From the NCBI GenBank assembly GCA_029289095.1, contig JARFUG010000005.1:11914-75913 (forward strand): a stretch of DNA of 64,000 bases, written 5' to 3'. The stretch is from Desulfuromonadales bacterium. GTDB lineage: Bacteria > Desulfobacterota > Desulfuromonadia > Desulfuromonadales > JACZKF01. Position numbers and translations under genes: made by a program. Position 1 is the stretch's first letter, and the number at the start of each line of letters is the position of its first letter. This document shows positions 13,008 through 30,095 of this stretch, piece by piece. Under the pieces are notes generated by a model. It was given only the letters and a program-made list of their open reading frames with translations. It had not been told where the DNA came from and did not search any database.

Positions 13008-14173
13008 AACGATTGAGGATCGCCCACCTGATCGCCAGCAATTTCTTCGGGGGTCCGGAGAAGCAGATTCTGGAGCACGCGCGGCGTCTGCGGGAGAGTC
13101 CCTTCGAGGTATGCCTGATCTCGTATCACGAGGGGACGAAGAATGAATTCCTGGAACAGGCGCGCCGCGAAGGGCTCAGCACCCTGGCGCTGCCGGCGCG
13201 TATCCCCTTCGATCCGCGGGCGATCATCGATCTGAGCGCCGCTCTTCGAAGGGAGAATGTGGGGCTGCTGGTCACCCATCACTACAAGGCAAACGTTCTT
13301 GGAACCCTTGCAGCCACTCGCGTGGGGATACCGAAGGTGAGCGTCTCCCGGGGGTGGACAGGGGAGAACCGCAAGGTGCGTTTCTATGAATGGCTCGACA
13401 AGCGCTTTCTTCGCTTCGCCGATGAGATCGTCGCCGTATCGGAAGGGCAGCGCGCAAAGATTCTGGCCCTGGGAGTCGACCCACGGCGCGTTCGGGTCAT
13501 CCACAACTGCATCGACCTGGAGAATTCTCCTCCCCGGGCGGAGATTCCCCTGCGATGGGAACTCAGACTGTGCCCGGAGACCCTTCTGATCGCATCTGCC
13601 GGGCGCCTGAGTCCCGAGAAGAATATTGAAGGGTTGATCAGGGTGGCCGCGCGGGTCATGGCCTGCTCGCCGCGCGCCGTTTTTGTCGTCTTCGGCGAGG
13701 GGGTGCTTCGCAGGCGTCTTGAGGAGGCCGTCCGCAAAGCCGGTCTGCAGGGGAGCTTTCTTCTGCCGGGATTTCGCGAAGACTTCGCCGCCGTGCTGCC
13801 GCAGATCGACATCTTCGTCCTCCCCTCTCTGACCGAGGGGCTCCCCAATGTCATCCTGGAAGCCTTTGCCGCCCGAAAGCCGGTGGTGGCAACGGCCGTC
13901 GGAGGGACTCCCGAAGTCGTCGTCGATGGGGAAGGGGGATACCTGGTGCGTCCCGGCGATGAGGAAAAAATGGCGGAACGCATTCTGGAGCTCATGCATG
14001 ACTCCGAACTCCGGCGGCAGATGGGGGAGATGGGGCAGCGGCGCGTCTGCGAGACCTTCAGCCCCAGGAAACAGGCCGAAGCCTATTTCGCCCTCTATGA
14101 GGCCATGGTCCGCCGCAGGACGGAGCGCTACGGGCGCGGCGACCTTCCGGCACAGAAGGGCTGGAAGGTCTGA
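13004..14173 (+). CDS. family 4 (GT-B) glycosyltransferase
   Basis: ATG 13004 overlaps the upstream TGA (ATGA). MKRLRIAHLIASNFFGGPEKQ N-terminus. C-terminal FVLPSLTEGLPNVILEAFAARKPVVATAVGG (E-x7-E). The 5' extension to 12911 is rejected. Confidence 0.85.
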   Translation: MKRLRIAHLIASNFFGGPEKQILEHARRLRESPFEVCLISYHEGTKNEFLEQARREGLSTLALPARIPFDPRAIIDLSAALRRENVGLLVTHHYKANVLGTLAATRVGIPKVSVSRGWTGENRKVRFYEWLDKRFLRFADEIVAVSEGQRAKILALGVDPRRVRVIHNCIDLENSPPRAEIPLRWELRLCPETLLIASAGRLSPEKNIEGLIRVAARVMACSPRAVFVVFGEGVLRRRLEEAVRKAGLQGSFLLPGFREDFAAVLPQIDIFVLPSLTEGLPNVILEAFAARKPVVATAVGGTPEVVVDGEGGYLVRPGDEEKMAERILELMHDSELRRQMGEMGQRRVCETFSPRKQAEAYFALYEAMVRRRTERYGRGDLPAQKGWKV

Positions 14174-14212
14174 AGAGGGGGATATGAGTGAGCGGAAGGA
14201 AAATTTTCTCGT

Positions 14213-15337
14213 ATGGACCCATTTCTGACCATCGTCATGCCTGTGCGCAACGAGAGGCGCTTTATCTCCGATACGATCCGGATGCTCCTGAGCCAGGATT
14301 ATCCCGAAGACCGCTACGAGATCATCGTCGCCGACGGGCATTCCGACGACGGTACGGCGGAGCTCGTCCAGGAACTGGCCGCCCGCCACCCACAGATCCG
14401 CCTCGTCATCAACGACAAGCGGCGATCGAGCGCCGGGCGCAACCTCGGTTTTCGCCTCGGAAGAGGCGAGTATTTTCTCGTCGTCGACGGCCACTGCCAT
14501 ATCGACAACGATCGCCTCTTGCGCAGCGTCGTCGACTGCTTCGAGCGCAGCGGCGCCGACTGCCTGGGGCGCCCTCAGCCCCTCGACCCCCCGGGGCTCA
14601 CGCCTTTCCAGGAGGCGGTCGCCCTTGCCCGCGCTTCGTTCATCGGGCACAGCAGCCAGTCTCTGATCTACGATCGCCACGAAGGGTATGCCAGCATCGT
14701 GAGCAACGGCGCGGCCTACAGGCGCGAGGTCTTCGAGAAGGTCGGCTATGTCGATGAGCGCATGGACGCCTGCGAAGACGTCGAATTTCACTACCGGATC
14801 GAAAAAGCGGGACTGCGCGGCTACACCAGCCCCGATCTGACCGTGCGCTACTATCCCCGCGAAGACCTCGCCGCCCTCTATCGCCAGATGCACAGGTACG
14901 GGAAGGGGCGCTACCGTTTTTTGCAGCGCCACCCTGAAAGCTTCCATTGGGAAACGCTGATCCCCCCTCTTTTCGTCCTCGGCCTGTATCTGCTGGCCGC
15001 AAGCGTTCTGGGGGTCTTCGCGATCTATCTGAGGACGAACCCGGGTGAAGAAGTCGCTATGGCTTCATCGACTTTGGCGCTCCTGGTCTGCGCAGGGGGG
15101 CTTTTCGGTCTCTATCTCTCCTATCTCTGCGTCATCGGGGGAACCTCGGTTCTGATCGCACTCGAACAGGGGCCAAGACACCTGCGCTATCTCCCCGGCA
15201 TCTTTTTCACCATCCACCTCGGAATGGGGCGCGGTTTTCTGGCAGCGCTCTGGAACGCCGCGCAGGACGACACAGACATCGACAGAGCCGACATTCCTCC
15301 GCGAATGCGCAAGCCTGCGGGAAAGAGTCCGTCATGA
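14213..15337 (+). CDS. family 2 glycosyltransferase with C-terminal TM region
   Basis: LTIVMPVRNERRFI, IIVADGHSDDGT and LVVDGHCHI motifs. Four C-terminal hydrophobic helices. Confidence 0.85.
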   Translation: MDPFLTIVMPVRNERRFISDTIRMLLSQDYPEDRYEIIVADGHSDDGTAELVQELAARHPQIRLVINDKRRSSAGRNLGFRLGRGEYFLVVDGHCHIDNDRLLRSVVDCFERSGADCLGRPQPLDPPGLTPFQEAVALARASFIGHSSQSLIYDRHEGYASIVSNGAAYRREVFEKVGYVDERMDACEDVEFHYRIEKAGLRGYTSPDLTVRYYPREDLAALYRQMHRYGKGRYRFLQRHPESFHWETLIPPLFVLGLYLLAASVLGVFAIYLRTNPGEEVAMASSTLALLVCAGGLFGLYLSYLCVIGGTSVLIALEQGPRHLRYLPGIFFTIHLGMGRGFLAALWNAAQDDTDIDRADIPPRMRKPAGKSPS

Positions 15338-16296
15338 CGCCGCCCTTCAACGTCCTGATCCTGACCGGCGACGACCCCGAGCGCTATCGCACCCTTCAGG
15401 ACGAGGGAATCGAAATTCATGTGCGCGCCCCGTCAGAAACGATCCCCGAGATCGAGCGCGTCGATGCCGTTATCGGGGGGTGGTTCAGTCGCGAGCTCCT
15501 GGAAAGCGCCGGGCGGCTCAAGTATTTTCTCGTCCCGTTTGCAGGCCTCCCGCCGGATCTGGGCAACCTCCTGCGGAACCGTCCCGGGCTGCACGTGGCC
15601 AACTGCCATTACAGCGCGCCCTTCGTCGCCGAACATGTCTTTGCCATGATCTTTCACCTGTGGCGCAACCTGCAGTCGATGGACCGCTTCATGCGCCGCT
15701 CGCGCATCGTTCGCCGGCGCCGTCCCGCCGTCGACTTCGTCACCCTTCAGGGCAAGACGATGGGGATACTGGGGCGCGGCCACATCGGCCGCGAAGTGCA
15801 GCGTCGCGCGCTCGCCTTCGGAATGGACACCCTCATCTACAGTCGCGGCGACTATCTGCAGGATCCGGACAGGCGCAGGCTTCACGATCTTCTCGGGTGC
15901 AGCCGCATCGTCGTGCTGGCCCTTCCGCTCACCCAGGAGACGCGGGAGATGATAGCGCAGGAGGAATTCGCCCATATGGGGGGGGAATCGATTTTCATCA
16001 ACGTCTCGCGGGGCGAGATCGTCAAGGAGCAGGCTCTCTTCGACGCCCTGCACGGCGACAGGATTCAGGGGGCGGGGGTCGATGCCTGGTACAACTACGT
16101 CGAGGGGTTTTTCTCGGCCGAGCGGCCCTACACCTGCCCCTTCCACCGTCTGGCGAATATTGTCATGACTCCGCATGTGGCCTACCAGGCCGACGTTCTG
16201 GAGGCAGAAAAGCTCAGAAGCATACGGACCTTCATCCGCGAGGCCGCAGGGGGGAAATCTCTTTCGGGACGCATCGATCCGTCGCGAGGGTATTGA
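15334..16296 (+). CDS. D-isomer-specific 2-hydroxyacid dehydrogenase family protein
   Basis: ATGA overlap at 15334. NAD-binding GKTMGILGRGHIGREV. LPLTQETREMI, INVSRGEIV and VMTPHVA catalytic-region motifs. Confidence 0.8.
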   Translation: MTPPFNVLILTGDDPERYRTLQDEGIEIHVRAPSETIPEIERVDAVIGGWFSRELLESAGRLKYFLVPFAGLPPDLGNLLRNRPGLHVANCHYSAPFVAEHVFAMIFHLWRNLQSMDRFMRRSRIVRRRRPAVDFVTLQGKTMGILGRGHIGREVQRRALAFGMDTLIYSRGDYLQDPDRRRLHDLLGCSRIVVLALPLTQETREMIAQEEFAHMGGESIFINVSRGEIVKEQALFDALHGDRIQGAGVDAWYNYVEGFFSAERPYTCPFHRLANIVMTPHVAYQADVLEAEKLRSIRTFIREAAGGKSLSGRIDPSRGY

Positions 16297-16301
16297 GAAC
16301 A

Positions 16302-16382
16302 GGAGTCGGGAGTCGGGAGTCGGGAGTCGGGGCCAAAGCAAGAGCCAAGAACCAGGACCAAAAGCCGGGAGTCGGGAGCTCG
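16302..16382. repeat. heptamer array GGAGTCG x4 plus degenerate units
   Basis: GGAGTCG at 16302, 16309, 16316 and 16323. Degenerate CCAAAGC/AAGAGCC/AAGAACC units follow. GGGAGTCGGGAGCTCG at 16367-16382 ends 2 nt before ATG 16385. Confidence 0.9.
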
Positions 16383-16384
16383 TT

Positions 16385-17533
16385 ATGACCGACAAAGTCA
16401 AAATCGCTTTCGTCATCAACACCATCGCTTCCCCCTCTGGCGGGACGGAAAAGCAGCTCCTTTTCCTTCTCGAGGGGATGAACCGTGAGGTCTTCGAGCC
16501 GCATCTTTTCTGCCTTTATTCAAATGCCTGGCTCGATGAGCATTTCAGCCTCTGCCCCCTGCACGTTCTGGGGATCAACTCGTTCAAGAACCCCCTGATC
16601 CTGCAGCATCTCGCCTCCTTTGCCGCGACTCTGCGCAAAGAAAGCTTCTCCATCGTCCAGACCCATTTCTCGGACGCTAACATGGTGGGGACCCTCGCAG
16701 GGCGGCTCGCCGGCGTGCCGGTCATCATCTCGACCCGACGCGGCGTCCCCTACTACAGCAGCCGCGCGGGGCTCTCGATCCTGCGCCTGCTCAATGCCCG
16801 GGCGAGCTTCTTCATCGCCAACTCCCCCGCGACCCGCCAGTGGGCGTCCGAGGCCGAAGGGATCCCCCTGGAGAAGATCGGGGTGGTCCCCAACGGGATC
16901 GATCCCGCCGTCTGCGTACGGCGCGGGAGGCAGAGAAGCAGCTACCGGCGCGCGCTCAATCTGCCGCTGCGCGCTTCGGTCGTCGGCATCGTCGCCAACC
17001 TTCGCCCGGTCAAGGGGATCGAGATCTTCCTGCGTGCCGCCGCTCTGGTTCTGCTCGAGCTTCCGCAGAGTTACTTTCTGGTGGTCGGCGAAGGGGAGGA
17101 GGAGTCTTCGCTGCGCTCTCTGGCCCGGGAACTCGGGATCGCGCAAAACGTCCTTTTCCTCGGCAAACGAAGCGACGTCCCGGCCCTGCTCGACACCCTG
17201 GACGTGGGAGTTCTCTCCTCTCACTGGGAGAGCTTCTCCAACGCCATACTCGAATACCTCGCCGCCGGGATTCCCGTCGTGTGCACCGACGTGGGAGGGT
17301 GCAGGGATGTCGTCGTCGAGGGGATCAACGGCTACATCGTCCCTCCCGCAGACCCCAGGGCGATGGCCGAGAAGATCGTTCTGCTTCTGCATCGCCATTT
17401 CAGCCAGGGGGAGTGCCAGCGTCTTCGCCGCCGGGTGATGAAGAAATACTCCGTCGAGGCGATGGTGGAGGGGCATCAGAGCCTCTATCGACGGCTTTTG
17501 CAGGGAACCCTCGTGCCGCAGCAGGAAGGGTGA
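16385..17533 (+). CDS. family 4 (GT-B) glycosyltransferase
   Basis: MTDKVKIAFVINTIASPSGGTEKQ N-terminus. VLSSHWESFSNAILEYLAAGIPVVCTDVGG (E-x7-E). The 5' extension to 16175 runs through the repeat array and is rejected. Confidence 0.85.
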   Translation: MTDKVKIAFVINTIASPSGGTEKQLLFLLEGMNREVFEPHLFCLYSNAWLDEHFSLCPLHVLGINSFKNPLILQHLASFAATLRKESFSIVQTHFSDANMVGTLAGRLAGVPVIISTRRGVPYYSSRAGLSILRLLNARASFFIANSPATRQWASEAEGIPLEKIGVVPNGIDPAVCVRRGRQRSSYRRALNLPLRASVVGIVANLRPVKGIEIFLRAAALVLLELPQSYFLVVGEGEEESSLRSLARELGIAQNVLFLGKRSDVPALLDTLDVGVLSSHWESFSNAILEYLAAGIPVVCTDVGGCRDVVVEGINGYIVPPADPRAMAEKIVLLLHRHFSQGECQRLRRRVMKKYSVEAMVEGHQSLYRRLLQGTLVPQQEG

Positions 17534-17574
17534 CGGATGCGCAAAAGGTTGCGGGTGCGATTGGAAGAGACCGT

Positions 17575-18615
17575 ATGCTGAAACAATTCATCAAGAACTG
17601 CCTCTACGTGATCAGCCACGACGTTCAAAGGACGCTGGGCCTCGGACCGGTCTTCTGCAGGGGAATCCATATCCTGATGTATCACCGCATCTGCCCCCGG
17701 CGCGATGAGCTCGGAATCGCCATCAGCCCGGAATTTTTTGAGGCACAGATCCGGTATCTCCAGAACCATTTCACCATTATCTCTCTCGATGAGGCGCTTG
17801 AGGCCATCCCTCGCGGAACGAGTGAACCGCTTTTCGCCATCACCTTCGACGACGGGTACAGGGACAATTTCACCGACGCATATCCGGTCCTGCGCCGTTA
17901 CGGCGTCCCCGCCACCATCTTCATCACCTGCAACGACGTCCAGAGCGGGGTGACGGATTGGCATCGGATGGACTGCGCCCTTCGCGAAACCGCCCTCGAG
18001 GAGCTCGATCTGGAAATCTTCGGCCTCGGCATCATCTCCCTTCGCACCCTGGAGGAACGCATCAGGGCGATCCGCACCCTTCACCGTCGCCTGAAGGAGA
18101 TCGACAACGAGCTGCGCCTCGAGATCCTCTCCTTCATCCTGGAGCGCTGCGGCGCGAGGGAACTGGAGAGAATCATGCTGACCTGGCAGGACGTGCGTCG
18201 TATGTCCGACGAAGGGCTCGTCACCATCGGGTCCCACACCCTCAGCCACCCGATTCTGACGAGCGTCGGCGCGGCCGCCGCGAAAAGGGAGATCGAGCAG
18301 AGTCGCCTGCGCATCGAAGAGGTGATCGAGCGTCCCGTCAGGCATTTCGCCTACCCGAACGGAGATTTCGACGCCAAGATCGCCGATCTGGTGAGACAGG
18401 GCGGATATGCCAGCGCCTGCACCACCGTCGCGGGGTGCAACGAGAGGAGGGCCGATCTCTTCGCTCTTCGGCGAATCGATGTGACCTATCAGATGTGCGA
18501 GACCATCAGCGGACACTTCTCTGCGCGCATGTTCGCCATGAGCATGGCGACCGAGGCGAATGCCAAAGAGGGGTGGCCACCCCGGCAGAACATCAAGCCG
18601 GCAGCGGGAGTCTGA
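17575..18615 (+). CDS. polysaccharide deacetylase (CE4/NodB-like)
   Basis: MLKQFIKN... ILMYHRI, FAITFDDGYRDNFTDAYPVLRRYGVPATIF, IGSHTLSHP and FAYPNG motifs. The long Arg/Gly-rich 5' extension of ORF 16840-18615 overlaps the previous GT and is rejected. Confidence 0.85.
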   Translation: MLKQFIKNCLYVISHDVQRTLGLGPVFCRGIHILMYHRICPRRDELGIAISPEFFEAQIRYLQNHFTIISLDEALEAIPRGTSEPLFAITFDDGYRDNFTDAYPVLRRYGVPATIFITCNDVQSGVTDWHRMDCALRETALEELDLEIFGLGIISLRTLEERIRAIRTLHRRLKEIDNELRLEILSFILERCGARELERIMLTWQDVRRMSDEGLVTIGSHTLSHPILTSVGAAAAKREIEQSRLRIEEVIERPVRHFAYPNGDFDAKIADLVRQGGYASACTTVAGCNERRADLFALRRIDVTYQMCETISGHFSARMFAMSMATEANAKEGWPPRQNIKPAAGV

Positions 18616-18624
18616 GAGAGCGTC

Positions 18625-19794
18625 ATGAAGATCGAGATCGTCTCCAGTCAGGAATCGTTCGCCTCCCTGAGAGAGCCCTGGAGCGAACTGCTCGAAAAAA
18701 ATCCGGCGGTAGACTTCTTCCTCTCCCACCCCTGGCTCTACTCGTGGTGGGAAGTCTTCGCACGGGGGCGTGAGCTCTCGATCTTCGTGTGCCGCCACGG
18801 GAGCGACGGAAGGGTCGTCGGAATCCTCCCGGCCTTTATGGAAAACGGTGGAGGTCTCTCGTCGCGACGCATGCGGCTGCTGGGGAGCGAGTTCGTCAGT
18901 TCGGATTTTCTCGGCATTCTCGTCGATCCGCACAGCAAAGAAGAGACCCTGAAGGCGCTTCTCGATGCTCTCCATCACGGCGAGCAGCTCTGGGATCTGC
19001 TCGATTTCGAGGCGCTCGATTCACAGGGAGACCTGCCGGCGCTCCTGCATGAAACGGTTGCGAAAGGGGAGGGGCGCCGGATTCTCATCGAGCCCGGCGA
19101 AACGTGCCCGGCGCTGGTTCTTCCGGGCGACTGGGAGACGTACCTGCGTGCGCTGACGAAAAAGATGCGCTCCAACGTCCGGTATTTCCGCAAGGTGCTG
19201 GAGCGCCGCGGCGCCGTGGAGTACGAAATGATTGAATCGCCGGAGCAGTTCGAAGGGGCGCTGAGTGATGTGATGCGTCTTCGCCGTCGCTGGATCGAGG
19301 CGCGCGGGTACTCGAGCCCGTGCCCTTTTCCCCTCTACGCCGATTTTCACCGCCGCCTGTGGAGGCGCTCGATTCCCGAAGGGGGTGTCCACATCCGCTT
19401 CCTGCGCTACAACGGGCGTCGCATCGCTTTCGCCTATCTTCTGCGCCTGGGAGCGAGCGTTTACTACTACCAGACCGCCTTCGAGCAGGAATTCGCCAGT
19501 CGCAGCGTCGGTTCCGTCCTTCTCGGCCACCTTATCGAAGAGGCGATCGCCTGGGGGTGCACCCGCTTCGAGTTCCTGCGCGGGGATGAACAGTACAAAT
19601 TCAAATGGGGAGAGGTGCGAGAGCGCAGGCTCGCAAGGGTGAAGGTCTACAACGCCACCGGCGCCGGGCGCTGGAGCTACGGCATCGACACGGCTCTGGG
19701 GAGCGCGCGGAGGATGGTGAAGGGACTGGCGCCGGGAAGGACGGAGGACAGAGGACGGAGGACGGAGGACAGCAAACTCCCCCTCCTTGATTAG
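18625..19794 (+). CDS. FemAB-fold GNAT acyltransferase (CelD/BioF2-like, Acetyltransf_6 type)
   Basis: 389 aa. C-terminal signature FEFLRGDEQYKFKWG. Length and layout match four other paralogs in the window. The last ~19 aa (GRTEDRGRRTEDSKLPLLD) are encoded by the heptamer array. Confidence 0.7.
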   Translation: MKIEIVSSQESFASLREPWSELLEKNPAVDFFLSHPWLYSWWEVFARGRELSIFVCRHGSDGRVVGILPAFMENGGGLSSRRMRLLGSEFVSSDFLGILVDPHSKEETLKALLDALHHGEQLWDLLDFEALDSQGDLPALLHETVAKGEGRRILIEPGETCPALVLPGDWETYLRALTKKMRSNVRYFRKVLERRGAVEYEMIESPEQFEGALSDVMRLRRRWIEARGYSSPCPFPLYADFHRRLWRRSIPEGGVHIRFLRYNGRRIAFAYLLRLGASVYYYQTAFEQEFASRSVGSVLLGHLIEEAIAWGCTRFEFLRGDEQYKFKWGEVRERRLARVKVYNATGAGRWSYGIDTALGSARRMVKGLAPGRTEDRGRRTEDSKLPLLD

Positions 19795-19801
19795 GAGGGG
19801 G
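19739..19801. repeat. heptamer array GGACGGA/GGACAGA x5 followed by an 8-bp hairpin spanning the stop codon
   Basis: Units at 19739, 19746, 19753, 19760 and 19767. CCCCCTCC (19779-19786) pairs with GGAGGGGG (19794-19801). The loop TTGATTA contains the TAG stop. Confidence 0.9.
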
Positions 19802-19854
19802 TTGGGGGGTGGTGGAGATCGTGACAAGACGCCGCGAAGCGGCCCGGAGCTCAA

Positions 19855-21048
19855 ATGAATATTCCCCCACAGGAAAACACCTATTCGCTGGCCCACAGCG
19901 CCGAGGGGTACGTCGTCATCGATTCGCTGCGGTGGGGAACGAGTGCCGGGGGGGTGAGGATATCGGGGGACATGACCCTGGCCGAGGTGCGGGCTCTCGC
20001 GCGGGAGATGAGCTGCAAGTTCGGATTCTTCGACCTTCCGCGCGGCGGGGCCAAGAGCGGCATCCGCATGCCGGGAGTTCTCGGTGTCAAGGAGCGGCGG
20101 GACGTTCTCGAGGACTTTGGGAGCAGGCTCAAACCGCTCATCGTCTCGGGGCGATACTACCCCGGGATGGACATGAACTGCGGCCCCGGCGATCTGCAGG
20201 CGATCTATCGCGGGGCCGGCCAAGAGGTCGACGGTTTTACCGACACCTCCTTCTACACCTCCTTATCGGTCGCGCACGCCCTGATGGCGTGCCGCCGGAT
20301 ATCGTTTCCACCCGATCGCCCCCTCACCCTGGCGGTGGAGGGGTTCGGAAGGGTCGGCGCGCACCTCGCCCGCCGACTCCCCCCGCAAGCGTTTCGCATC
20401 ACGGCACTTTCGACTCTTGCCGGAGGGGTGAGCAGCGAGAGCGGATTCGACCCTGAAGACCTCGCACGTCTGCGCGACAAACACGGCGACTCCCTGGTGG
20501 AGCATCTTCCGGGAAAGAGGATCGAGAAGCGCGAGATCCTGAGCTCTTTGGTCGATATCCTCGTCCCTTCGGCGCGCACCTGGAGTATCGACATCGAAAC
20601 CGCCTCGAAGCTTCGCGCCGCCTGCGTCGTGCCGGTCGCCAACGTCCCCTACGCCGAAGGGGTCTCCGAACTCCTACATCGGCGGGGAGTCCTCTGCCTT
20701 CCGGGGTTCGTCTGCAATGGGGGTGGGGTCTTCGCCTCGTCCCTGGCCGACAGCGCGGTGGAGGGGGAGCGCATCGAGGCGATCTGTCGGGACTTCTATC
20801 AGCCGATGGTCGAAGAGCTGATCCGACGCAGTCGCTCCCTTGGCATCTCGCCCGTCGAACTTGCGCAGCAGGTTGCCTTGCGGCGACTCGAAAGAGGGGA
20901 AGGGGGGAGGGTCGGTCCCATTCTGAAGCGGGTCTATCGCCGCGGGTTGTTCCCGCCGCAGCTCTACGGGTATTTGGTGCAACACCTCTTCGGGCGCAAT
21001 CTGACGGCCCTCGAGAGAATGATTCGGGGTCAACCCGTGAAGGGATAG
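19855..21048 (+). CDS. Glu/Leu/Phe/Val amino-acid dehydrogenase family protein
   Basis: 397 aa. SAGGVRI...LPRGGAKSGI (substrate/Lys region), NAD fold VEGFGRVGAHLARRL, and VPVANVPY. Confidence 0.65.
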   Translation: MNIPPQENTYSLAHSAEGYVVIDSLRWGTSAGGVRISGDMTLAEVRALAREMSCKFGFFDLPRGGAKSGIRMPGVLGVKERRDVLEDFGSRLKPLIVSGRYYPGMDMNCGPGDLQAIYRGAGQEVDGFTDTSFYTSLSVAHALMACRRISFPPDRPLTLAVEGFGRVGAHLARRLPPQAFRITALSTLAGGVSSESGFDPEDLARLRDKHGDSLVEHLPGKRIEKREILSSLVDILVPSARTWSIDIETASKLRAACVVPVANVPYAEGVSELLHRRGVLCLPGFVCNGGGVFASSLADSAVEGERIEAICRDFYQPMVEELIRRSRSLGISPVELAQQVALRRLERGEGGRVGPILKRVYRRGLFPPQLYGYLVQHLFGRNLTALERMIRGQPVKG

Positions 21049-21051
21049 ACG

Positions 21052-22332
21052 ATGATTTACCTCGTAGCGATCTACATGTTCTTCTTCATTTTCCGTCCTT
21101 TCGAGTACTGGCCGATCCTGGGGGAATACCGCATCGAGCGGGTCTACATGCTTTTTTTGCTGAGCGCTCTGTGTTTCTGGCAGGGGAAAAAGTATTTCCC
21201 CCACACGATCAACCGGCTGGTCCTCCTCTTCTTTGCCGTCATGGCCGCCTCGACAGCGTGGGCGCTGCACGTCGACGTCGCCTATGAGGCCACCTTCGAG
21301 TTCTTCAAGCTCATGGTCTTCTTCTTCGTTCTCGTGCTGACGTTGCGGGACGAAAGGGACCTCAAGTTCTTCATCCTGGCGTACCTGGGGATCATGAGCA
21401 TCTATGTGGGGAAATCGGCGTGGGAGTTCTTCGTCCATGACCGCCACGTTTTTCGCATGGGAATCCGCAGGATGGTAGGGGTCGACACCACCTACGGCGA
21501 TCCCAACTCCTTTGCCGCCTCCATCGCCTACAGCCTGCCGTTCCTCTGGGCGATGCTGCGTCTTTACTGGCGGGACAACCCGTGGATACGCACAGCTCTC
21601 ATCGGCTACGGCGTGCTCGCTGCGGTTGCCGTCGTCTTTACCGGGTCGCGCAGCGGCATGCTCATCTGCCTTCTCTTCCTGGTGCTGGCCTGGTGGGAAT
21701 CGGCCAGGAGATTCGCGGGACTCATTGTCCTGGCGGGGGCTCTCGTCCTGGGCTGGCATTACACCCCGGAAGATCTCAAGTACCGGTTTCTCTCCACCTT
21801 CTACAAAGGGGTCGCTCCGGCGGCGGCCGCCGCCGACACCTCTGCAGAGGGGCGGCTGGACGGTCTTTTTCACGGGATACAAATTTTTTTCGAGAATCCT
21901 GTGATGGGCGTCGGTCCCGGCAACTTCCCTTATACGTGGGAGAGAGCCATGAGCTCGCACAATCTGTACGGGCAGCTTCTCGGCGAACTCGGCGCCGTCG
22001 GCTTCATCGCCTTTTTCCTGCTGGTCTGGACGATCTACCGCACGCATCGGCGCAACCGCCTGCGCATCGACGAACTGCAGGGCGGGGATTCCATGGCGGG
22101 CTACGACCCGGGCTTGCGGCTCATGCGCCTGCTCTCGGTCGCCTCGGTGCAGACCCTCATCCTCCTTCTGTTCAACGGCAACTTCGGCCACAACCTTTAC
22201 CGCTACAACTGGCTCTGGATCGGCGTCATCGCCATCGTGACGGCGCATGTGCTGGGAGGCAGAATTCAGAATCCAGGAGCCAGGAGCCGAAAGCTGTATC
22301 CAGGAGCCAGGAGCCAGAATTCCGAAACCTGA
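21052..22332 (+). CDS. O-antigen ligase/polymerase-like membrane protein (Wzy-type, exosortase-locus type)
   Basis: 426 aa, about 10 TM segments. FTGSRSGMLICLLFLVLAWW Wzy_C-like loop. HNLYGQLLGELG. C-terminal ~24 aa (IQNPGARSRKLYPGARSQNSET) encoded by heptamer arrays. Confidence 0.8.
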   Translation: MIYLVAIYMFFFIFRPFEYWPILGEYRIERVYMLFLLSALCFWQGKKYFPHTINRLVLLFFAVMAASTAWALHVDVAYEATFEFFKLMVFFFVLVLTLRDERDLKFFILAYLGIMSIYVGKSAWEFFVHDRHVFRMGIRRMVGVDTTYGDPNSFAASIAYSLPFLWAMLRLYWRDNPWIRTALIGYGVLAAVAVVFTGSRSGMLICLLFLVLAWWESARRFAGLIVLAGALVLGWHYTPEDLKYRFLSTFYKGVAPAAAAADTSAEGRLDGLFHGIQIFFENPVMGVGPGNFPYTWERAMSSHNLYGQLLGELGAVGFIAFFLLVWTIYRTHRRNRLRIDELQGGDSMAGYDPGLRLMRLLSVASVQTLILLLFNGNFGHNLYRYNWLWIGVIAIVTAHVLGGRIQNPGARSRKLYPGARSQNSET

Positions 22333-22351
22333 AACCTGAAACCTGAAACCT
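22273..22351. repeat. heptamer arrays CCAGGAG (x2, x2.5) and GAAACCT x4
   Basis: CCAGGAG at 22273, 22280, 22300 and 22307. CCAGAAT at 22314. GAAACCT at 22324, 22331, 22338 and 22345, giving TGA in all three frames (22330, 22337, 22344). Confidence 0.95.
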
Positions 22352-22365
22352 TATCGGAGTTCTTC

Positions 22366-23667
22366 ATGCAGATACTTGCGATCCTCTACATCTACCCCCC
22401 GCTCCTTTTCCCGGCCACCATGCGCAATCTCAAGGTGGTCAAGGGGCTTTCGGAGTGCGGCGCAGGCGTCGAGGTGGTGAGTGTCGATCCTGAGAGTTTC
22501 GTCTTTTCCGGGCATCACATCGACCCTGCACTGGAGGAACTCGCCCCGCCTTCAATCGTCAATCACCGGATCCGATCGTGGGAGGTTCATCCCCTGGTGA
22601 AGGGGCTCAAGGCCTTTGCCTTCACCCGCTCCCTTCTCTACCGGCTCTTCGAGCCGCGCAAGAAGGAGTGGACCTATTCAGCGCTACGATATCTTAAAAA
22701 GCTCGGCTCAGATCGGTTCGACCTGATCCTGAGTTGCTCGCAGCCCCACTGCAACCATCTGCTCGGCTACAGGCTCAAGCAGATGACGGGAAAACCATGG
22801 GTCGCCTATTTCAGCGACCCATGGACCGACAACGTCTATGCCGATTACAGCGATGAAAAGATCCGGCGCTACCATCTCGAGCTCGAAAAACGAGTCCTTC
22901 ACGGCGCCGATCGGATCTGCTTCACCTGCAAAGAAGCGGCCGATCTGGTGCTTCGGAAGCACCCGCCGGCGTTTGCCCGCAAATGCGTCATCCTCCCCCA
23001 CAGCTTCGTGCCGCAATGGTACGGGCTGCGTCCGGCCTGCGCAGCGGCGCCGGAGAAGATCCGCATCGTTCAGACCGGGCATTTCTATGGCCCCCGCACC
23101 CCCATGCCGCTCTTCGAGGCGTTGGCCGAAGCGGCGAAGAGGCGCCCCCTCGAAGAGCGGCTGGAGTTTCATTTCTACGGGAGCATGGATGACAGATACC
23201 ACAAATACATGCGGGAACACGGACTCGATCGTTTCGTGCACCTCAAGGGGACCGTCCCCTACCTGCAGAGCCTGTCCGTGCTCAAAGACGCCGATTTTCT
23301 CCTCCTCATCGACGCTCCCCTGACGGATCAGGCCGAGAGCGCCTTTCTCCCCTCCAAGCTCATCGATTATTTCGGGAGCGGGAAACCGGTCCTCGGCATC
23401 ACTCCGGCCGCCGGGACGAGCGCGCGGGTGCTGCGCGAGACGGGGAATCTGGTGTGCGACGTCGCCGACAAGACAGCCATCATGCAGATGCTCGAAAAAC
23501 TCGCCGAGGGCTCTCTCGATATCGATCCCGACACAGAGGCTCTCGGACGCTACGAAAACACCGAAGTCTCTCGGCGCTTCTACGCCGACCTGCAACATCT
23601 GGTACTTACCGATCCTCTCCCCCTCCTGGATCAGGAGGGGAGTGAAACCAGTGGCTGCCGCAGATGA
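22366..23667 (+). CDS. GT-B fold glycosyltransferase (GT4-like, divergent)
   Basis: 433 aa. Two-Rossmann layout. YFSDPWTDN, IVQTGHFYG and FLPSKLIDYFGSGKPVLG motifs. Similar architecture to 50307-51683. Confidence 0.6.
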   Translation: MQILAILYIYPPLLFPATMRNLKVVKGLSECGAGVEVVSVDPESFVFSGHHIDPALEELAPPSIVNHRIRSWEVHPLVKGLKAFAFTRSLLYRLFEPRKKEWTYSALRYLKKLGSDRFDLILSCSQPHCNHLLGYRLKQMTGKPWVAYFSDPWTDNVYADYSDEKIRRYHLELEKRVLHGADRICFTCKEAADLVLRKHPPAFARKCVILPHSFVPQWYGLRPACAAAPEKIRIVQTGHFYGPRTPMPLFEALAEAAKRRPLEERLEFHFYGSMDDRYHKYMREHGLDRFVHLKGTVPYLQSLSVLKDADFLLLIDAPLTDQAESAFLPSKLIDYFGSGKPVLGITPAAGTSARVLRETGNLVCDVADKTAIMQMLEKLAEGSLDIDPDTEALGRYENTEVSRRFYADLQHLVLTDPLPLLDQEGSETSGCRR

Positions 23668-23731
23668 ACGCAGATAAGCGCAGATGGACGAAGACCAGGT
23701 TTCCATCTGCGGAAATCTGTGCAATCTGCGG
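23659..23731. repeat. 10-nt periodic CGCAGAT array, three direct plus three inverted units
   Basis: CGCAGATGAA, CGCAGATAAG, CGCAGATGGA (23659-23688), then CCATCTGCGG, AAATCTGTGC, AATCTGCGG (23703-23731). The inner arms GCGCAGATGG/CCATCTGCG form a hairpin. The GT stop (23665-23667) lies in the first unit. Confidence 0.9.
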
Positions 23732-23745
23732 ATGAAAGATCTGGA

Positions 23746-25293
23746 ATGAAGATCAAGTCGGTCAACCGCCGCATCGCACTGAACGCCTCGACCAATTTCG
23801 TCCGGTTCGGGTCGCAGGTGGTCATCGTCTTCCTCATGACGCCCTTCATCATCGGAAGCGTGGGGGATGCGTCCTATGGGGTGTGGGTGGTGATCCTGTC
23901 GTTCGCCGGCTATGCGGCGATTCTCGAGTTCGGTGTTCACGAATCTCTGATCAAGCTCGTCTCCAAGTACGAGACGCTCGGCGACGCAGCAAAAATCAAC
24001 CAGGTCTTTTCCATCGCCTTTCTCTTCATGGCGTCTCTGGCGCTTCTCTCCTTCACTATACTGTTCTGGATCGTCCCCGGCGCCCTGCCGCGCCTTCTCG
24101 GAGAAGGAGCGGATCTGCAAACTGCCACGCTTCTGCTGAAAATCGTCGCCTTCGATGCGGTCCTGATGCTGATGAATTTCTCCTTCTCCGGCATGATCTA
24201 CGGTTTCCAGCTCTATCACATCAAGAACACCCTCGACATTTTCATCGGTCTGGTCAGCCCCCTGGTCGTCTACATCCTGATTCGCCTCGATTACGGGGTC
24301 CTCTCGCTGGCGTACGGCACGATTCTCTTCAATGCGCTCAACCTGCTCATCTTCTCCAGCCTGTGCAAGTACCACTTTCGCCCCCTGCGCCTTGTCTACG
24401 GCAGCGGCAGCTTCACCGCTGTGCGGGAAATCCTTGCCGTCAGCTCGCGCCTTTTCACCTCGGCCACTGCCCTCAGGCTCGCCCGCAATTCGCAGCCGCT
24501 GGTGATCGCCTGGTTTCTCCCCCCGGCCTGGAACGCCTTCTACGCCGTTCCGGCGCGTCTGGCCGATTACGGCAACGAACTGCTGTACGTCCTCTCGAGG
24601 GGGTTCATGCCGATCTTCAGCGAATACCACTCCCGCGGCGATCGCGCGGCGATTCGCGAGCTCTATTTTCGCTTCACGCGCTTCATCGTCGCCGGCTTCT
24701 TCCCCCTGATCCTCTCGCTGCTCGTTTTCGGGGAGAGCTTTCTGTCGATCTGGATGTCGGCGGAATACGCCGAAAAAGGGAAATGGGTTCTGCTGTTTCT
24801 GACCCTTTCGATCTTCGTGCAGAGCTGCCAGCCACTTTGGGCCAAACTTCTCATCGGTGTCGAGCGTCTGGGCGTGATTGTCTCCGTCAACGTCTCGGTC
24901 TCGATTCTCCAGATCGTCCTCGGGATCGTTCTGGTTGCGGCGTACGGGATCGACGGCATGGCGCTGAGCATTCTGTGCGCCATGTTCGTCAGTCAGTTCA
25001 TCTATTTCCGCTACGTCGCCCGTTATCTGGAGACGACTCCCTGGGATTACATTCGCGGCTGCCATGTCCGGGCGCTCCTCGCATCGGCGGTCTTCTTCGC
25101 GCTCATCTCTACACTCAGGGGAACGTTCCCTCCGCAGAGCTACTTCGCGATCCTCTGGCAGCTCGCTTTCGGTTTTGCCGTCTATATTCCCCTGGCCTGG
25201 TTCCTTGTGCTGAGCCGGAACGAGCGCCGCGTTCTCAACGAGAAGGTCGCCGGGCGTTTCGGAGCCGGAGCGGCCAAGGAGCTCGAGCCATGA
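23746..25293 (+). CDS. oligosaccharide-unit flippase (Wzx, MOP superfamily)
   Basis: Start at ATG 23746. About 12-14 TM helices. N-terminus NASTNFVRFGSQVVIVFLMTPFIIGSVGDASYGVW is typical of polysaccharide biosynthesis (Wzx) proteins. Confidence 0.8.
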   Translation: MKIKSVNRRIALNASTNFVRFGSQVVIVFLMTPFIIGSVGDASYGVWVVILSFAGYAAILEFGVHESLIKLVSKYETLGDAAKINQVFSIAFLFMASLALLSFTILFWIVPGALPRLLGEGADLQTATLLLKIVAFDAVLMLMNFSFSGMIYGFQLYHIKNTLDIFIGLVSPLVVYILIRLDYGVLSLAYGTILFNALNLLIFSSLCKYHFRPLRLVYGSGSFTAVREILAVSSRLFTSATALRLARNSQPLVIAWFLPPAWNAFYAVPARLADYGNELLYVLSRGFMPIFSEYHSRGDRAAIRELYFRFTRFIVAGFFPLILSLLVFGESFLSIWMSAEYAEKGKWVLLFLTLSIFVQSCQPLWAKLLIGVERLGVIVSVNVSVSILQIVLGIVLVAAYGIDGMALSILCAMFVSQFIYFRYVARYLETTPWDYIRGCHVRALLASAVFFALISTLRGTFPPQSYFAILWQLAFGFAVYIPLAWFLVLSRNERRVLNEKVAGRFGAGAAKELEP

Positions 25294-26930
25294 TGAGACC
25301 AACTTCCCTGATCGCCTTTGTTCTGCTCTTTCTCTGGACGGCGCCAGCCGCTGCGGGAGAGCGCCTAATAGACGGTCCGGCGATCCTCGACCAGGAAAAC
25401 GCCAGCTACCGGCTGACGGTCGATATCGAGGCGAACTCCACCCCCTTCGTCATCCGCGCTTCGGGGGTGACCCTCGATCTCGGCGGGCGCGCCATCACCG
25501 TGCGATGCCGCGAGGGGGAAGAGGGGGCGATCCACGCCGTCGCCGTCGAAGGGCATCATCTGAAACAGATCCGGATTCTGAACGGCTCCCTGAGCCAGCG
25601 CGGCCAGTGCCGCGAGAGCCATCCGGTCCATATGCCTTCCGGGGTGCACGGCGCCGAAATCGCCCACCTCGCCATCGACTACGAGTCGCCGGACGCCTCG
25701 GCCATTCGCATGCACTGGGGGGAGCATTCGCGCATCCATCACAACGTGATCGACGATCGCGGTCAGGTCGTTTCCAATCGTCACCAGGGGGTGGCGGCTA
25801 TCGATGCAGGGCGGGGGGAGGGGATGCGCATCCACGACAACACCATCCGTCGCACCCGGCATATCGGGATTCGGACGGCGGAAGGGGCCGAAATCCGCAA
25901 CAACGCGGTGCATATCGACAGCGTCGCCACGAACTCGACGGGGATCTTCGCCGCAGGAGGCGTCGTGGCGCACAACCGGGTGACGGGGGAGGGGGTTCAC
26001 CCCATCGGCATCTGGCCGGGAAACGATATCCGGGTCTTCGGGAACTACGTCCGGGTGGGAAACACCCGCTTCGGCGAAGAGTACGGCAACACCGGCGCCG
26101 CCTGCCTGCGCATGACCTGGGGAAACGACGCCGTGGAGGTGACCGACAACATCTTCATTCTCGATGCCGAAGGGGCTGCAGCGGAACCGGATTTGGAAAG
26201 CTGGGGGAGGGCGCTTTGGGTGGGGCTCCCCGAGCCGGGCCAGAGAGCGCTCTTCGCCCGCAACCTCATCGTCGCCAGCAGCCGCGAAGGGCGCGCCAAA
26301 GCGGCCGCTATCGCCGTGGTGTGCGACAACGCCTCTTCAGGGCTCGTCTTTCTGGAGAACACCGTCATCAGCAACTGGGGGGCGGTGCTGCTCGCCGACG
26401 ATTACGGGCACGCTGACGGCTACGCGCGTTTTGTCGAGAACACCTTCGTGCGCCAGGGGGATTCTCCGGAGTTTCGCACTGTGCGCAGCGATTATCCCGA
26501 ATACCCGAGTACGGGGATCTTCATCGACAACCTCTGCCTGGGGGGCGCTTCCTGCACGGAGGCCGACCTGGAGTGGGGGGGGGCGGGTCTGAAGGAGGTC
26601 GGCTTCGGCCGCCGAGTCGTCTTTGTGCTGACGGACGCTTCGGGACGCCCCCTTGCCGATGTCTCCGTGGAGATCGTCGACGCAGAGAGTCTCTCTCGTT
26701 TCGAGGGGCGAACCGATGAGAACGGGGAGATTCCGGCAGAACTCGTCGATTACTTTCTCACCAACCAGGTCGCGATGCTCATGGCATCCGGCGAGAGGGA
26801 ATTCCCGGTGCGCCGCCGCGCAACGTCCGCCCTCACGATGCGTCGGGGAGAAATGGAAAGCCGAAAATCCGTCCACACCGGAACGGAAGAGCTGCCGCGC
26901 ACGATCCGGTTAAAATTCGTCGTCGATTAG
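25290..26930 (+). CDS. secreted right-handed beta-helix (PbH1/CASH-like) protein, paralog 1
   Basis: ATGA overlap with wzx (25290-25293). Signal peptide MMRPTSLIAFVLLFLWTAPAAAG. Repeated xNxI/V beta-helix rungs (HHNVIDD, IHDNTI, IRNNAV, AHNRV, FGNYV, TDNIF). C-terminal CarboxypepD_reg-like beta-sandwich (VVFVLTDASGRPLADVSVEIVD...TDENGEI). Shares blocks with 28076 and 30316. Confidence 0.7.
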   Translation: MMRPTSLIAFVLLFLWTAPAAAGERLIDGPAILDQENASYRLTVDIEANSTPFVIRASGVTLDLGGRAITVRCREGEEGAIHAVAVEGHHLKQIRILNGSLSQRGQCRESHPVHMPSGVHGAEIAHLAIDYESPDASAIRMHWGEHSRIHHNVIDDRGQVVSNRHQGVAAIDAGRGEGMRIHDNTIRRTRHIGIRTAEGAEIRNNAVHIDSVATNSTGIFAAGGVVAHNRVTGEGVHPIGIWPGNDIRVFGNYVRVGNTRFGEEYGNTGAACLRMTWGNDAVEVTDNIFILDAEGAAAEPDLESWGRALWVGLPEPGQRALFARNLIVASSREGRAKAAAIAVVCDNASSGLVFLENTVISNWGAVLLADDYGHADGYARFVENTFVRQGDSPEFRTVRSDYPEYPSTGIFIDNLCLGGASCTEADLEWGGAGLKEVGFGRRVVFVLTDASGRPLADVSVEIVDAESLSRFEGRTDENGEIPAELVDYFLTNQVAMLMASGEREFPVRRRATSALTMRRGEMESRKSVHTGTEELPRTIRLKFVVD

Positions 26931-26992
26931 TGCAACCCGTACGGCGCAGGCGAACGCCACTGACGACATTGAGCACGAGATATCGAGACCAA

Positions 26993-27697
26993 ATGAAACT
27001 TTCCGAACTGAGAAGAAAGGTGCTGACGATAGAGAAGGTTGTTTTCTACTCTCTCGATTTGCGGCAGTGGCAGACGCCGTCTTTGCCCCGAATGCGGCTG
27101 CCGGTCAGATTTGCCTTCGGGAGAGAAGAAGACATCGAATGCATGGCGGCCGACGACAGACTCAATCTCGGAGGGCGCAGCGATTTCTATCTGCAGAAGC
27201 TGCAGATGGGACACAAGCTGCTGCTCGGAACACGGAACGAGGAGATCCTCTTTTATCTCTGGGTCGTTTCGGGGGAGAAGATCCTGATGAACAAAGTGTT
27301 GGCGCTCGAGCCGCAGCAGATCGCCATCGAGAGGGCCTTCGTCCGCAAGGACGTGCGCGGACACGGCCTCTTCGTCCACGGTCTCAATTACCTTCTCCCA
27401 CTGGAAAAGGAGGAGGGAGCGGCGAACTGCCTGACGGAGGTGAGCTGCAAGAACAGGCCGATGACCCACACCGTGCTGAAATACGGTTTCGAGCGCCTCG
27501 ACTCCTCCTACTACTGGATCTCCCATCCGCTGCGTCATCACGCCATCGTCCTCGGTCCGCTGCGAAAGCGCAGCCGCCCCAACACCATCATCTCGCCGAT
27601 GGCAGGCGCGCAGGGGAGGTATCTATGGAAGGCAGAAGCCAGAAGCCAGAAGCCAGGAGCCAGGAGCCAGGAGCCAGGAGTAAGGAATAAGGAATAA
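26993..27697 (+). CDS. small GNAT-like N-acetyltransferase (tentative)
   Basis: Start at ATG 26993. ERAFVRKDVRGHGLFVHGLNYL resembles GNAT motif A (R-x-x-G-x-G/A). The C-terminal ~20 aa are encoded by heptamer arrays, and the stop is the third TAA of TAAGGAA x3. Confidence 0.45.
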   Translation: MKLSELRRKVLTIEKVVFYSLDLRQWQTPSLPRMRLPVRFAFGREEDIECMAADDRLNLGGRSDFYLQKLQMGHKLLLGTRNEEILFYLWVVSGEKILMNKVLALEPQQIAIERAFVRKDVRGHGLFVHGLNYLLPLEKEEGAANCLTEVSCKNRPMTHTVLKYGFERLDSSYYWISHPLRHHAIVLGPLRKRSRPNTIISPMAGAQGRYLWKAEARSQKPGARSQEPGVRNKE

Positions 27698-27876
27698 GGA
27701 CCAGGAGCCAGGAGTCAGGAGCCAGGAGCCAGAGCCGGCTCGTTCTTTTCCGTTTAACTCGCCCTCCTCCCTCCTCCCTTCTTGGCCCTTCGTCCTCTGT
27801 CCTCTGTCCTCCGTCCTCCGTCCTCCGTCCTCCGTCCTCCGTCCTCTCCAACTCCCAACTCCCAGCTCCCAACTCC
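27632..27876. repeat. largest heptamer-repeat block: ~15 sense units then ~12 antisense-type units
   Basis: 27632-27735: GCAGAAG, CCAGAAG x2, CCAGGAG x4, TAAGGAA x3, CCAGGAG x2, TCAGGAG, CCAGGAG, CCAGAGC. 27793-27876: TCCTCTG x2, TCCTCCG x5, TCCTCTC, CAACTCC x2, CAGCTCC, CAACTCC. Confidence 0.95.
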
Positions 27877-27989
27877 CGCCATATCACCACAGCCTCCGAC
27901 ACAAATGGTCAACGCCTTCGCTCGAGGGTGTGAACTTTCGTTCTCCTGGCTTTTAAGATAAGTGACTGAAATTGCGTAGAAAACAAAGT

Positions 27990-28005
27990 TGGTACATGCA
28001 TTGCT
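27990..28005 (+). promoter_or_regulatory. sigma-54 (-24/-12) promoter candidate for beta-helix lipoprotein paralog 2
   Basis: TGGTAC-ATGCA-TTGCT against the consensus TGGCAC-N5-TTGCW, with exact GG-N10-GC spacing. Lies 71 nt upstream of ATG 28076. Confidence 0.6.
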
Positions 28006-28075
28006 CCTTTGAGCTCCCGGCCGACGCATAAGCCGTCGGAACCGGGCTTTTCAAATGAACAAGGAGATCACGAGA

Positions 28076-29983: not shown

Positions 29984-29987
29984 AATC

Positions 29988-30095
29988 GTGAGGAGTGAGG
30001 AGTCAGGAGTCAGGAGTCAATAGATTGAGTGCAATGCAATCGGCGGGACCCTTCGGGTTCCGCCTTTTTTTTATCCCAGCTCCCAACTCCCAACC
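29988..30095. repeat. heptamer arrays flanking a terminator: GTGAGGA/GTCAGGA x5 and CAGCTCC/CAACTCC x2.7
   Basis: Units at 29988-30022 (sense GGAGTGA/GGAGTCA family). The complement family is at 30077-30095. The two blocks bracket the hairpin at 30042-30072. Confidence 0.9.
30042..30072 (+). terminator. Rho-independent terminator after paralog 2
   Basis: GGCGGGACC (30042-30050) pairs with GGTTCCGCC (30056-30064), including one G-U pair. Loop CTTCG, followed by T8 (30065-30072). Confidence 0.8.

Follow-up and report, generated by a model that had tools for sequence, protein, structure and literature searches.

Heptanucleotide arrays that stop all three reading frames at two gene ends of a Desulfuromonadales polysaccharide locus: a probable by-product of repeat turnover

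Two stop-bearing arrays in stop-free heptamer tracts

The window analysed here is a stretch of 64,000 nucleotides from a Desulfuromonadales bacterium (GCA_029289095.1, contig JARFUG010000005.1), in which two arrays of tandem heptanucleotides, GAAACCT and TAAGGAA, each place one stop codon in every reading frame and each close the open reading frame (ORF) that runs into them. We conclude that these stop-bearing arrays are probably ordinary hypermutable heptanucleotide repeats at gene ends, and that the all-frame stop is an arithmetic by-product of the repeat period and not a selected device. All window features described below lie on the + strand.

The first array consists of four perfect copies of GAAACCT (22324-22351), with TGA at 22330, 22337 and 22344, the first stop of each frame when scanning from 22273. 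The first of them (22330) closes the ORF 21052-22332, which encodes a Wzy_C protein (O-antigen ligase/polymerase-like, by Pfam and homolog alignment). The 3' end of this ORF is a compound heptamer tract (22258-22323) that reads, unit by unit, GGCAGAA TTCAGAA TCCAGGA GCCAGGA GCCGAAA GCTGTAT CCAGGAG CCAGGAG CCAGAAT TCC..., and no sense-frame stop is found in any frame between 22250 and 22323. Written in the register of the preceding CCAGRAG units, GAAACCT becomes CCTGAAA, so that the end of the Wzy gene appears as CCAGGAG CCAGGAG CCAGAAT TCCGAAA CCTGAAA CCTGAAA CCTGAAA CCTTATC. The next gene, a glycosyltransferase of family 4 (GT4; 22366-23667, by Pfam), starts 15 nt past the array: a GGAG motif resembling a Shine-Dalgarno (SD) sequence at 22356-22359 is followed by the ATG at 22366 (22356-22368 in all), as identified from the sequence and from the gene calls of a near-identical contig (L001, below). 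A frame check places Wzy and GT4 in one frame, and the sole in-frame stop between them is TGA 22330; the GAAACCT array therefore bars their in-frame fusion.

The second array, 2.9 copies of TAAGGAA (27681-27700), carries TAA at 27681, 27688 and 27695, again the first stop of each frame, scanning from 27633. It follows stop-free arrays of three CAGAAGC and four CAGGAGC units (27633-27680), and its third TAA (27695) closes an ORF of 234 amino acids (aa) with no assigned function (26993-27697, by translation and homolog alignment). In register, the junction reads CAGGAGC CAGGAGC CAGGAGC CAGGAGT AAGGAAT AAGGAAT AAGGACC AGGAGCC, and a CCAGGAG-type array resumes past the stop-bearing units, shifted by 1 nt (27701-27736). 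A preliminary description of the sequence had reported the stop positions of both arrays and the termination of both ORFs inside them after stop-free heptamers; all of this proved exact, the TAAGGAA array being given there as three copies. It had also noted that CCAGGAG, GGAGTCG and GGACGGA arrays hold no stop in any sense frame and read cyclically as PGARSQE, GVGSRES and GRRTEDG, which is correct.

Only 2 to 3 substitutions separate the GAAACCT and TAAGGAA units from the CCAGRAG units that flank them, and the 7-nt register is common to both. Such a sequence pattern is typical of compound repeats, which would arise by point mutation plus amplification. A mutated unit would thus have been amplified through replication slippage. 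In the two genes lacking a stop ahead of the tract, translation would run on through the stop-free units, and the resulting tail, short, non-conserved and hydrophilic, would extend up to the first stop-bearing unit. As 7 is coprime to 3, gain or loss of upstream units would change no more than a few tail residues and move the stop to another copy. This by-product could make the repeats tolerable at gene ends and limit the damage caused by slippage. Since 7 mod 3 = 1, any stop-bearing heptamer present in three copies closes all frames.

Tails and arrays differ between homologs and between near-identical assemblies

The proteins were compared with their homologs. In an alignment of 16 homologs, the conserved core of Wzy ends near residue 404 with the motif ...LWIGxIxxxxAHxL (...AHVL in the window), and the heptamer repeats encode the last ~22 residues (GGRIQNPGARSRKLYPGARSQNSET, then the stop). 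Past the core, the homologs carry mutually unrelated tails of 8 to 45 residues, and the 86%-identical ortholog P0002 has another heptamer-encoded tail, KAGARSQEPEARSGEPESRRQGAGVGS. For the 234-aa ORF only three homologs were found; their core ends with ...ISPMAGAQxRxL, followed by tails of 6 to 23 residues. The window protein is conserved up to ...ISPMAGAQGRYL and ends with the heptamer-encoded tail WKAEARSQKPGARSQEPGVRNKE, then the stop. Past the conserved cores, the tails differ in every homolog of both alignments. We considered whether the TGG codon of the ...YLW motif in the 234-aa ORF might be a former TGA stop; the W is kept in the orthologous locus L117, whereas the most distant homolog has D at this position. 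A third ORF of the window, the acetyltransferase gene 18625-19794, reads through a GGACGGA-type array (19736-19772) and exceeds its 376-aa orthologs by 13 aa; it stops in unique sequence, where a three-frame stop array is absent. As a separate observation, a PF01797 domain (Y1 transposase / REP-mobilising RayT) is added, in an unusual fusion, to the distant Wzy_C homologs P0063, P0067, P0091 and P0099.

Copy number was compared in short-read metagenome-assembled genomes (MAGs) throughout, in which arrays may be partly collapsed. One near-identical sequence is L001, a contig of GCA_030604755.1 that aligns with window positions 11052-30007 (18.9 kb, 99.87% identical). Over this length the two differ by 3 mismatches and two indels, both inside heptamer arrays: L001 lacks 14 nt (two CCAGRAG units of the stop-free tract 27633-27680) and 7 nt (one TAAGGAA unit). 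As a consequence, the frame of its 234-aa ORF is shifted in the tail and the ORF ends at another TAA, the tail changing from ...ARSQKPGARSQEPGVRNKE in the window to ...ARSQKPGARSKE in L001 (endings SQEPGVRNKE and ARSKE, each followed by the stop). Likewise, the metagenome contigs L118 and L119, which carry an ortholog with 81% protein identity and are 99.6% identical to each other, show just one indel relative to each other, with the length of one 7-nt unit. The variation in unit number suspected in the preliminary description is thus present, including the move of the stop to another TAA.

These differences could in part have been produced by short-read metagenome assembly. L001 and L002, a further contig of the same organism, both terminate inside heptamer arrays (window positions 30007 and 27662), from which we deduce that assemblers break at the arrays; the arrays cap the length of contigs, and short-read MAGs may contain them in collapsed form. 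That the arrays or their copy numbers are assembly artefacts is nevertheless extremely improbable: three independent assemblies contain the same arrays with identical flanks, L117 has a syntenic gene order over every junction, like arrays are found in complete isolate genomes, and most arrays are shorter than one read.

The three-frame stop is neither conserved nor enriched

The preliminary description had proposed that a frame-independent stop past a frame-open, slippery tract is what one would expect where unit number varies. We compared the arrangement in L001, in the orthologous loci L117 (86% protein identity), L118 (81%) and L121 (69%), and in L243. At the Wzy-GT4 junction of L117, the units are degenerate (GCCAGRA/GGAGTYG), Wzy is closed by a single TAG, and just ~1.7 GAAACCT units are left, directly before the GT4 ribosome-binding site. 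The corresponding junction of L118 has no array, and in L121 the two genes overlap, again with no array. Past the 234-aa ORF, the array of L117 is decayed and contains one stop, and L243 has no array. L001 keeps two TAA units, after which one frame is open for ~260 nt. Hence the idea that relatives would preserve a stop-free array followed by a three-frame stop failed, and the arrays turn over completely between loci with 69-86% identity. According to the preliminary description, the pattern would be incidental if the arrangement was not conserved and the arrays did not vary in length; conservation is indeed lacking, but length does vary.

How often would stop-bearing arrays be expected? Read cyclically, 31% of all heptamers contain a stop, the share being 14-29% among heptamers that are 1 or 2 substitutions away from CCAGGAG and CCAGAAG; with such frequencies, two stop-bearing types among about a dozen units are expected. 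We then turned to other phyla. Genes were called there with a crude home-made caller that scores composition, since shadow ORFs in the GC-rich window mislead a choice by longest ORF. This caller is imperfect, and for this reason the cross-phylum statistics rest on strand-symmetric comparisons. On the purine-rich strand of 197 such arrays, all from other phyla, we saw no clear enrichment of stop-bearing units (40 observed for 32.7 expected from permuted unit composition). Finally, we asked how often all three frames are shut within 30 nt of a stop-free tract, using 2.5 Mb from 332 loci. Such rapid closure showed no excess where an upstream ORF enters the tract (3 of 29 tracts) over tracts located past a normal stop (8 of 108; Mann-Whitney p 0.14), and the three closures are the two of this window and one in L145.

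Hidden or 'ambush' off-frame stops and tandem fail-safe stops are conceived as catching out-of-frame or read-through translation. By analogy, the three-frame stop array could be a selected fail-safe terminator, kept so that slippage frameshifts never give long aberrant or fused proteins. Consistent with this, unit number varies and the stop shifts among TAA copies, Wzy would fuse in frame to GT4 without TGA 22330, and in L145 an ORF running through AGGTGYC units is closed by three GAAACCT copies. However, the two TAA units of L001 leave a frame open, the arrangement is lost in L117, L118, L121 and L243, the third ORF-invaded array of the window (19736-19772) has no backstop, the other loci show no enrichment, and the property is automatic for a period of 7. 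The idea of ambush stops concerns ribosomal errors, whereas the frame change is here a DNA indel. The backstop effect in this allele is real, yet neither conserved nor enriched. Of the proposal in the preliminary description, the variation in unit number and the capture of shifted frames therefore stand, while no sign of selection was found. We regard a selected terminator as very unlikely, and as largely refuted by the missing conservation and enrichment.

Slippage at the 3' end could also be a means of deliberate variation, acting on the C-terminal tails of neighbouring proteins as well as on that of the polysaccharide polymerase. The tails do differ between near-identical genomes, they are hydrophilic repeats of 7 residues, and the functions encoded by the locus concern surface polysaccharides, a class that is often phase-variable. 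Such programmed diversification is highly improbable all the same. The arrays are situated beyond the conserved cores, and the tails are short and without conserved motif. Most arrays begin past the stop codon (28 + 2 of 39, at distances clustering from -9 to +7 nt). No ON/OFF variant was seen. The window does not behave as a phase-variable contingency locus either, with arrays past the cores and an L001 variant that alters the last residues only.

Heptamer arrays across phyla and a possible role as leader

Exact matches to three CCAGRAG copies were sought in contigs representing one genome per species (L003-L116), where at least 114 stretches were recovered against ~2 expected by chance. The matches listed come from Acidobacteriota, Planctomycetota, Verrucomicrobiota, Desulfobacterota, Nitrospirota, Chloroflexota, Gemmatimonadota, Cyanobacteria and others. 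Among them, GCCAGAA is the commonest unit, the arrays typically begin at a stop codon (distances clustering from -9 to +7 nt) and are often followed by a complementary array, the purine-rich strand is the sense strand in 38 cases versus 15, and symmetric patterns of arm order in array pairs count 17 versus 4. Three copies of GAAACCT were found in at least 120 stretches of metagenome contigs (L123-L242). In the 100 loci listed, GAAACCT-sense arrays precede same-strand starts, many of them at 2-30 nt (34 within 80 nt, versus 7 in the opposite orientation); the complement AGGTTTC adjoins stops, and (AGGTTTC)n...(GAAACCT)n outnumbers the reverse order by 17 to 1 among the matches listed. Over all fetched loci, 117 inverted complementary array pairs no more than 120 nt apart were detected, G outnumbering C in the first arm of 58 pairs and C outnumbering G in that of 19, with the same asymmetry from both strands. 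The CCAGRAG and GAAACCT families, both present in this window, were found together in none of the sampled loci listed (0 of 114 and 0 of 120). Separately, viral and proviral IMG/VR contigs (L248-L327 and L331-L340) contain three CCAGRAG copies in 83 cases and three TAAGGAA copies in 10.

This polarity is relevant to another reading, in which the GAAACCT array is a functional RNA leader, unstructured and A/C-rich, that tunes or promotes the initiation of GT4 translation. The array might serve ribosomes as a standby or S1-type site, or be bound by a repeat-binding protein; its stops would keep upstream termination near the next start and favour translational coupling; and inverted arrays elsewhere would be intercistronic hairpins for mRNA stability, processing or termination. 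Several observations are in line with this reading. GAAACCT-sense arrays lie 5' of starts and AGGTTTC adjoins stop codons in the order just described. In the window, the ATG lies 15 nt past the array and a GGAG stands in the interval; the array is predicted unpaired (folding z-score +0.4 at 22300-22372), and L117 retains its ~1.7 units at the equivalent place. The inverted arrays fold much better than shuffles at IG1 (6722-6810, z -8.4), IG7 (29981-30100, z -5.0, around the canonical intrinsic terminator 30042-30064) and IG8 (36053-36190, z -4.7). Similar speculation has been published for TAACTGA and for Nostoc heptamers near start codons. On the other hand, the arrays are not conserved at the orthologous junctions of L118 and L121, partnerless arrays are the majority (82 of 100 and ~96 of 127 among the matches listed), sense RNA does not fold consistently better than antisense, and arm lengths are uncorrelated (rho 0.15). 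Taken as a whole, this reading is possible but unlikely.

Two signs of selection on the hairpins were looked for and discarded. Selection at the RNA level, as revealed through G-U pairs by better folding of sense than of antisense RNA, gave no consistent picture, sense being better at IG1 and antisense at IG6 and IG8. Selection on hairpin stems, judged from the correlation of arm lengths, gave a weak signal (p 0.10 for the above rho).

Folding and signal searches at the two stop-bearing arrays were negative. No intrinsic terminator is present at 22324-22351, and near the TAAGGAA array there is only a weak 5-bp stem (27726-27741). A hairpin of the repetitive extragenic palindromic (REP) type is not formed by either of the two arrays, whose region is predicted to be unstructured (z -0.6 and +0.4). 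A programmed -1 frameshift site is also absent: CCAGGAG, CCAGAAG and GAAACCT do not match X XXY YYZ, and 22300-22372 is without structure. Periodic NAG binding of the HutP/TRAP kind, CsrA GGA sites and Rho-utilisation (rut) sites on C-rich arrays were considered as analogies only.

Generalised, the junction arrays might form a widespread, polar architecture across phyla, tunable by slippage, with a G-rich arm at the stop and a complementary A/C- or pyrimidine-rich arm at the next ribosome-binding site that jointly set coupling, mRNA processing or termination, the unstructured GAAACCT arm doubling as all-frame terminator and ribosome landing site. We hold this combined proposal to be quite unlikely. 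If it were true, the 'favourite' heptamers specific to lineages would imply a repeat-binding factor or a dispersal mechanism, and if the arrays were functional they would constitute a mutable expression dial within long polysaccharide operons.

Several points weigh against our preferred reading, that of ordinary hypermutable repeats. Slippage alone leaves unexplained why the same units recur at many junctions of the window (six for CCAGRAG) and in many phyla, and it does not account for the polar placement, with the G-rich arm at stops and GAAACCT before starts. The GAAACCT remnant before the GT4 ribosome-binding site of L117 hints at constraint, and some arrays may be functional. Copy-number polymorphism between close relatives is present, part of which could be assembly collapse, and the gene caller behind the cross-phylum statistics is crude. 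The recurrence and polarity of CCAGRAG and GAAACCT sharpen the old question of why heptanucleotide repeats are over-represented in large environmental bacterial genomes, and that of how one unit spreads to many loci. For annotation and method, hypermutable repeats fix where ORFs end in such genomes. Strains that are almost identical can differ in their predicted C-termini and even in gene fusions, and the arrays are points at which short-read assemblies break or collapse.

Comparison with known repeat systems

The two stop-bearing arrays probably belong among the known hypermutable intergenic heptanucleotide repeats. As in those, the period is exactly 7, with at least 3 head-to-tail copies (Tandem Repeats Finder and exact-run scans), and the window arrays are placed at gene boundaries, on or beside stop codons. 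According to PMC4692102, which cites Mrazek 2007, heptameric repeats are over-represented among bacteria, and polymerase slippage is the cause proposed for this. Xanthomonas GGGAATC, Nostoc GGGGAYT and the short tandemly repeated repetitive (STRR) sequences of Calothrix and Nostoc vary in length and sequence between close relatives, and some are inverted (Rehm 2015, PMC4692102). The window arrays resemble them in being intergenic, of period 7, variable between relatives and partly in inverted pairs. They differ from the G-rich Xanthomonas and Nostoc repeats in that their units do not form G-quadruplexes, in taxon, and in invading ORF 3' ends.

TAACTGA direct repeats are known from Beggiatoaceae, Cyanobacteria and Bacteroidetes (MacGregor 2015, PMC4679880). 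The TAACTGA unit stops all frames, so that gene ends overlap it by no more than 18 nt (PMC4679880); the all-frame-stop property was thus already documented for another unit. These repeats, like ours, are tandem heptamers between genes, with copy numbers from 2 to tens, near start codons and patchy across phyla. The unit is a different one, however, and the stop-bearing arrays of the window sit in, and derive from, stop-free purine-rich arrays read through by ORFs. Inverted pairs are also many in the window, whereas a TAACTGA genome has one indirect repeat among 170 sets. TTTTGAA heptamers near start codons have been published for Nostoc.

Geobacter metallireducens, likewise an environmental anaerobe, has dispersed elements of four or five heptamers between and within genes: GGACCGG in four tandem units (49 copies) and five copies of MTYCTGA (PMC2700814). 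Its copy number is fixed at four, inside longer conserved elements, whereas the window arrays are variable and compound. Simple sequence repeat contingency loci of Haemophilus and Neisseria (such as the 7-bp repeats upstream of hmw1A/hmw2A) likewise gain and lose units by slipped-strand mispairing, with a unit not divisible by 3. They sit in promoters or in 5' or central coding sequence and switch expression, whereas the window arrays lie past the core and change only tails. REP elements, with the related BIME and REPIN and with intercistronic stabiliser hairpins, also follow stop codons directly, form long hairpins as inverted pairs (compare IG1, IG7 and IG8) and reach many copies per genome. 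Unlike them, the window arrays have no fixed consensus of 20-40 nt and no demonstrated RAYT association, their arms are tandem heptamers able to pair in several registers, and the two stop-bearing arrays are outside hairpins. A literature search with the array sequences as strings returned unrelated human and primer matches only and no paper with CCAGRAG array strings, and a 2025 census paper on short tandem repeats makes no mention of heptamers.

Other heptamer arrays of the window

The window contains 24 perfect tracts of period 7 against 1.1 in shuffles; in the same test, periods 4-6 and 8-12 were near chance. Between 6.7 and 37.3 kb, 9 of ~17 intergenic gaps longer than 20 nt are filled or dominated by heptamer arrays; between 38 and 64 kb, arrays were found in 0 of ~10 gaps. 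On the + (coding) strand, the purine-rich units (CCAGGAG, CCAGAAG, CCAGAAT, GGAGTCG/A, GGAGTTG, GGACGGA, GACAGAA) have a common GGAG/GGA/CAG core, and some gaps contain pyrimidine-rich complements further 3' (CTCCTGG, CTGGCTT, GTCCTCC, CCAACTC). Six junctions carry CCAGRAG, four GGAGTYR and three GGACGGA.

Individual gaps vary in organisation. At 6724-6806, inverted AGGAGCC/CCAGAAT and CTGGCTT/CTCCTGG arrays fill the entire gap and form the long IG1 hairpin. A CCAGGAG array past a stop codon, GC-rich hairpins and then pyrimidine-rich GTCCTCC/GTCTTCC arrays occupy 9259-9473. The gap 29988-30094 has GTGAGGA/GGAGTCA and CCCAACT arrays on both sides of the intrinsic terminator within IG7 (30042-30064, followed by T8). 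At 36061-36170, a CAGAATC/CCAGGAG array and a complementary CTCCTGG array (the IG8 hairpin) precede an SD sequence and a start, and the junction 37222-37322 carries GGAGTTG, GACAGAA and AGCCAGGAACTATG arrays, the last with a 14-nt period.

The gap 16300-16384 holds 4.3 copies of GGAGTCG, and a last GGGAGTCGGGAG acts as the SD region of the next gene; its counterpart in L117 (5380-5450) has one GGGAGTCG before the ATG. The window array appears, from this sequence comparison, to be an amplified SD-bearing heptamer of the next gene, which suggests that ribosome-binding sites can seed arrays with a GGAG core. CCCTCCT, about nine GTCCTCT/GTCCTCC and four CCAACTC units are found at 27760-27880, with a CTCC core complementary to the GGAG-bearing arrays. 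This array and that at 9391-9473 are long, C-rich and G-poor pyrimidine arrays on the sense strand, and the gaps that precede the next gene measure 378 and 348 nt. The two arrays sit at seeming transcription-unit boundaries and resemble Rho-utilisation sites by composition.

The polysaccharide locus

Pfam domains identify the content of the window as a polysaccharide locus of the PEP-CTERM/exosortase type. Every gene from ~2 to 61 kb is on the + strand. The locus includes Bac_transf, Wzz/GNVR and a P-loop ATPase, several GT2/GT4 transferases, deacetylases, GNAT/FemAB-like acyltransferases, two Wzy_C proteins and a Polysacc_synt_3 flippase, together with a PEP-CTERM protein (32286-33023), a large TPR protein and Exosortase_EpsH (38527-39369). 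The half from 38 to 64 kb comprises the exosortase, a radical SAM protein, an ABC transporter and the second Wzy. The named best homologs of the window proteins come from Nitrospirota/Thermodesulfovibrionales MAGs.

At gathering thresholds, Rfam gave no match anywhere in the window. In E-value mode over 6-38 kb, it returned miRNA-precursor matches on the IG1 hairpin only, which we judged spurious. Finally, the junction between GT4 and the flippase (23655-23745) contains a long hairpin made of ~10-nt repeats (GCAGATGAAC... / ...ATCTGCGG). This hairpin is kept with a different sequence at L117 12640-12745 and L118 5362-5490 (z -5.4, -6.6 and -3.3). Unlike the heptamer arrays, it persists in the 86% and 81% loci, and these predicted folds indicate that it may be a conserved intercistronic RNA structure.

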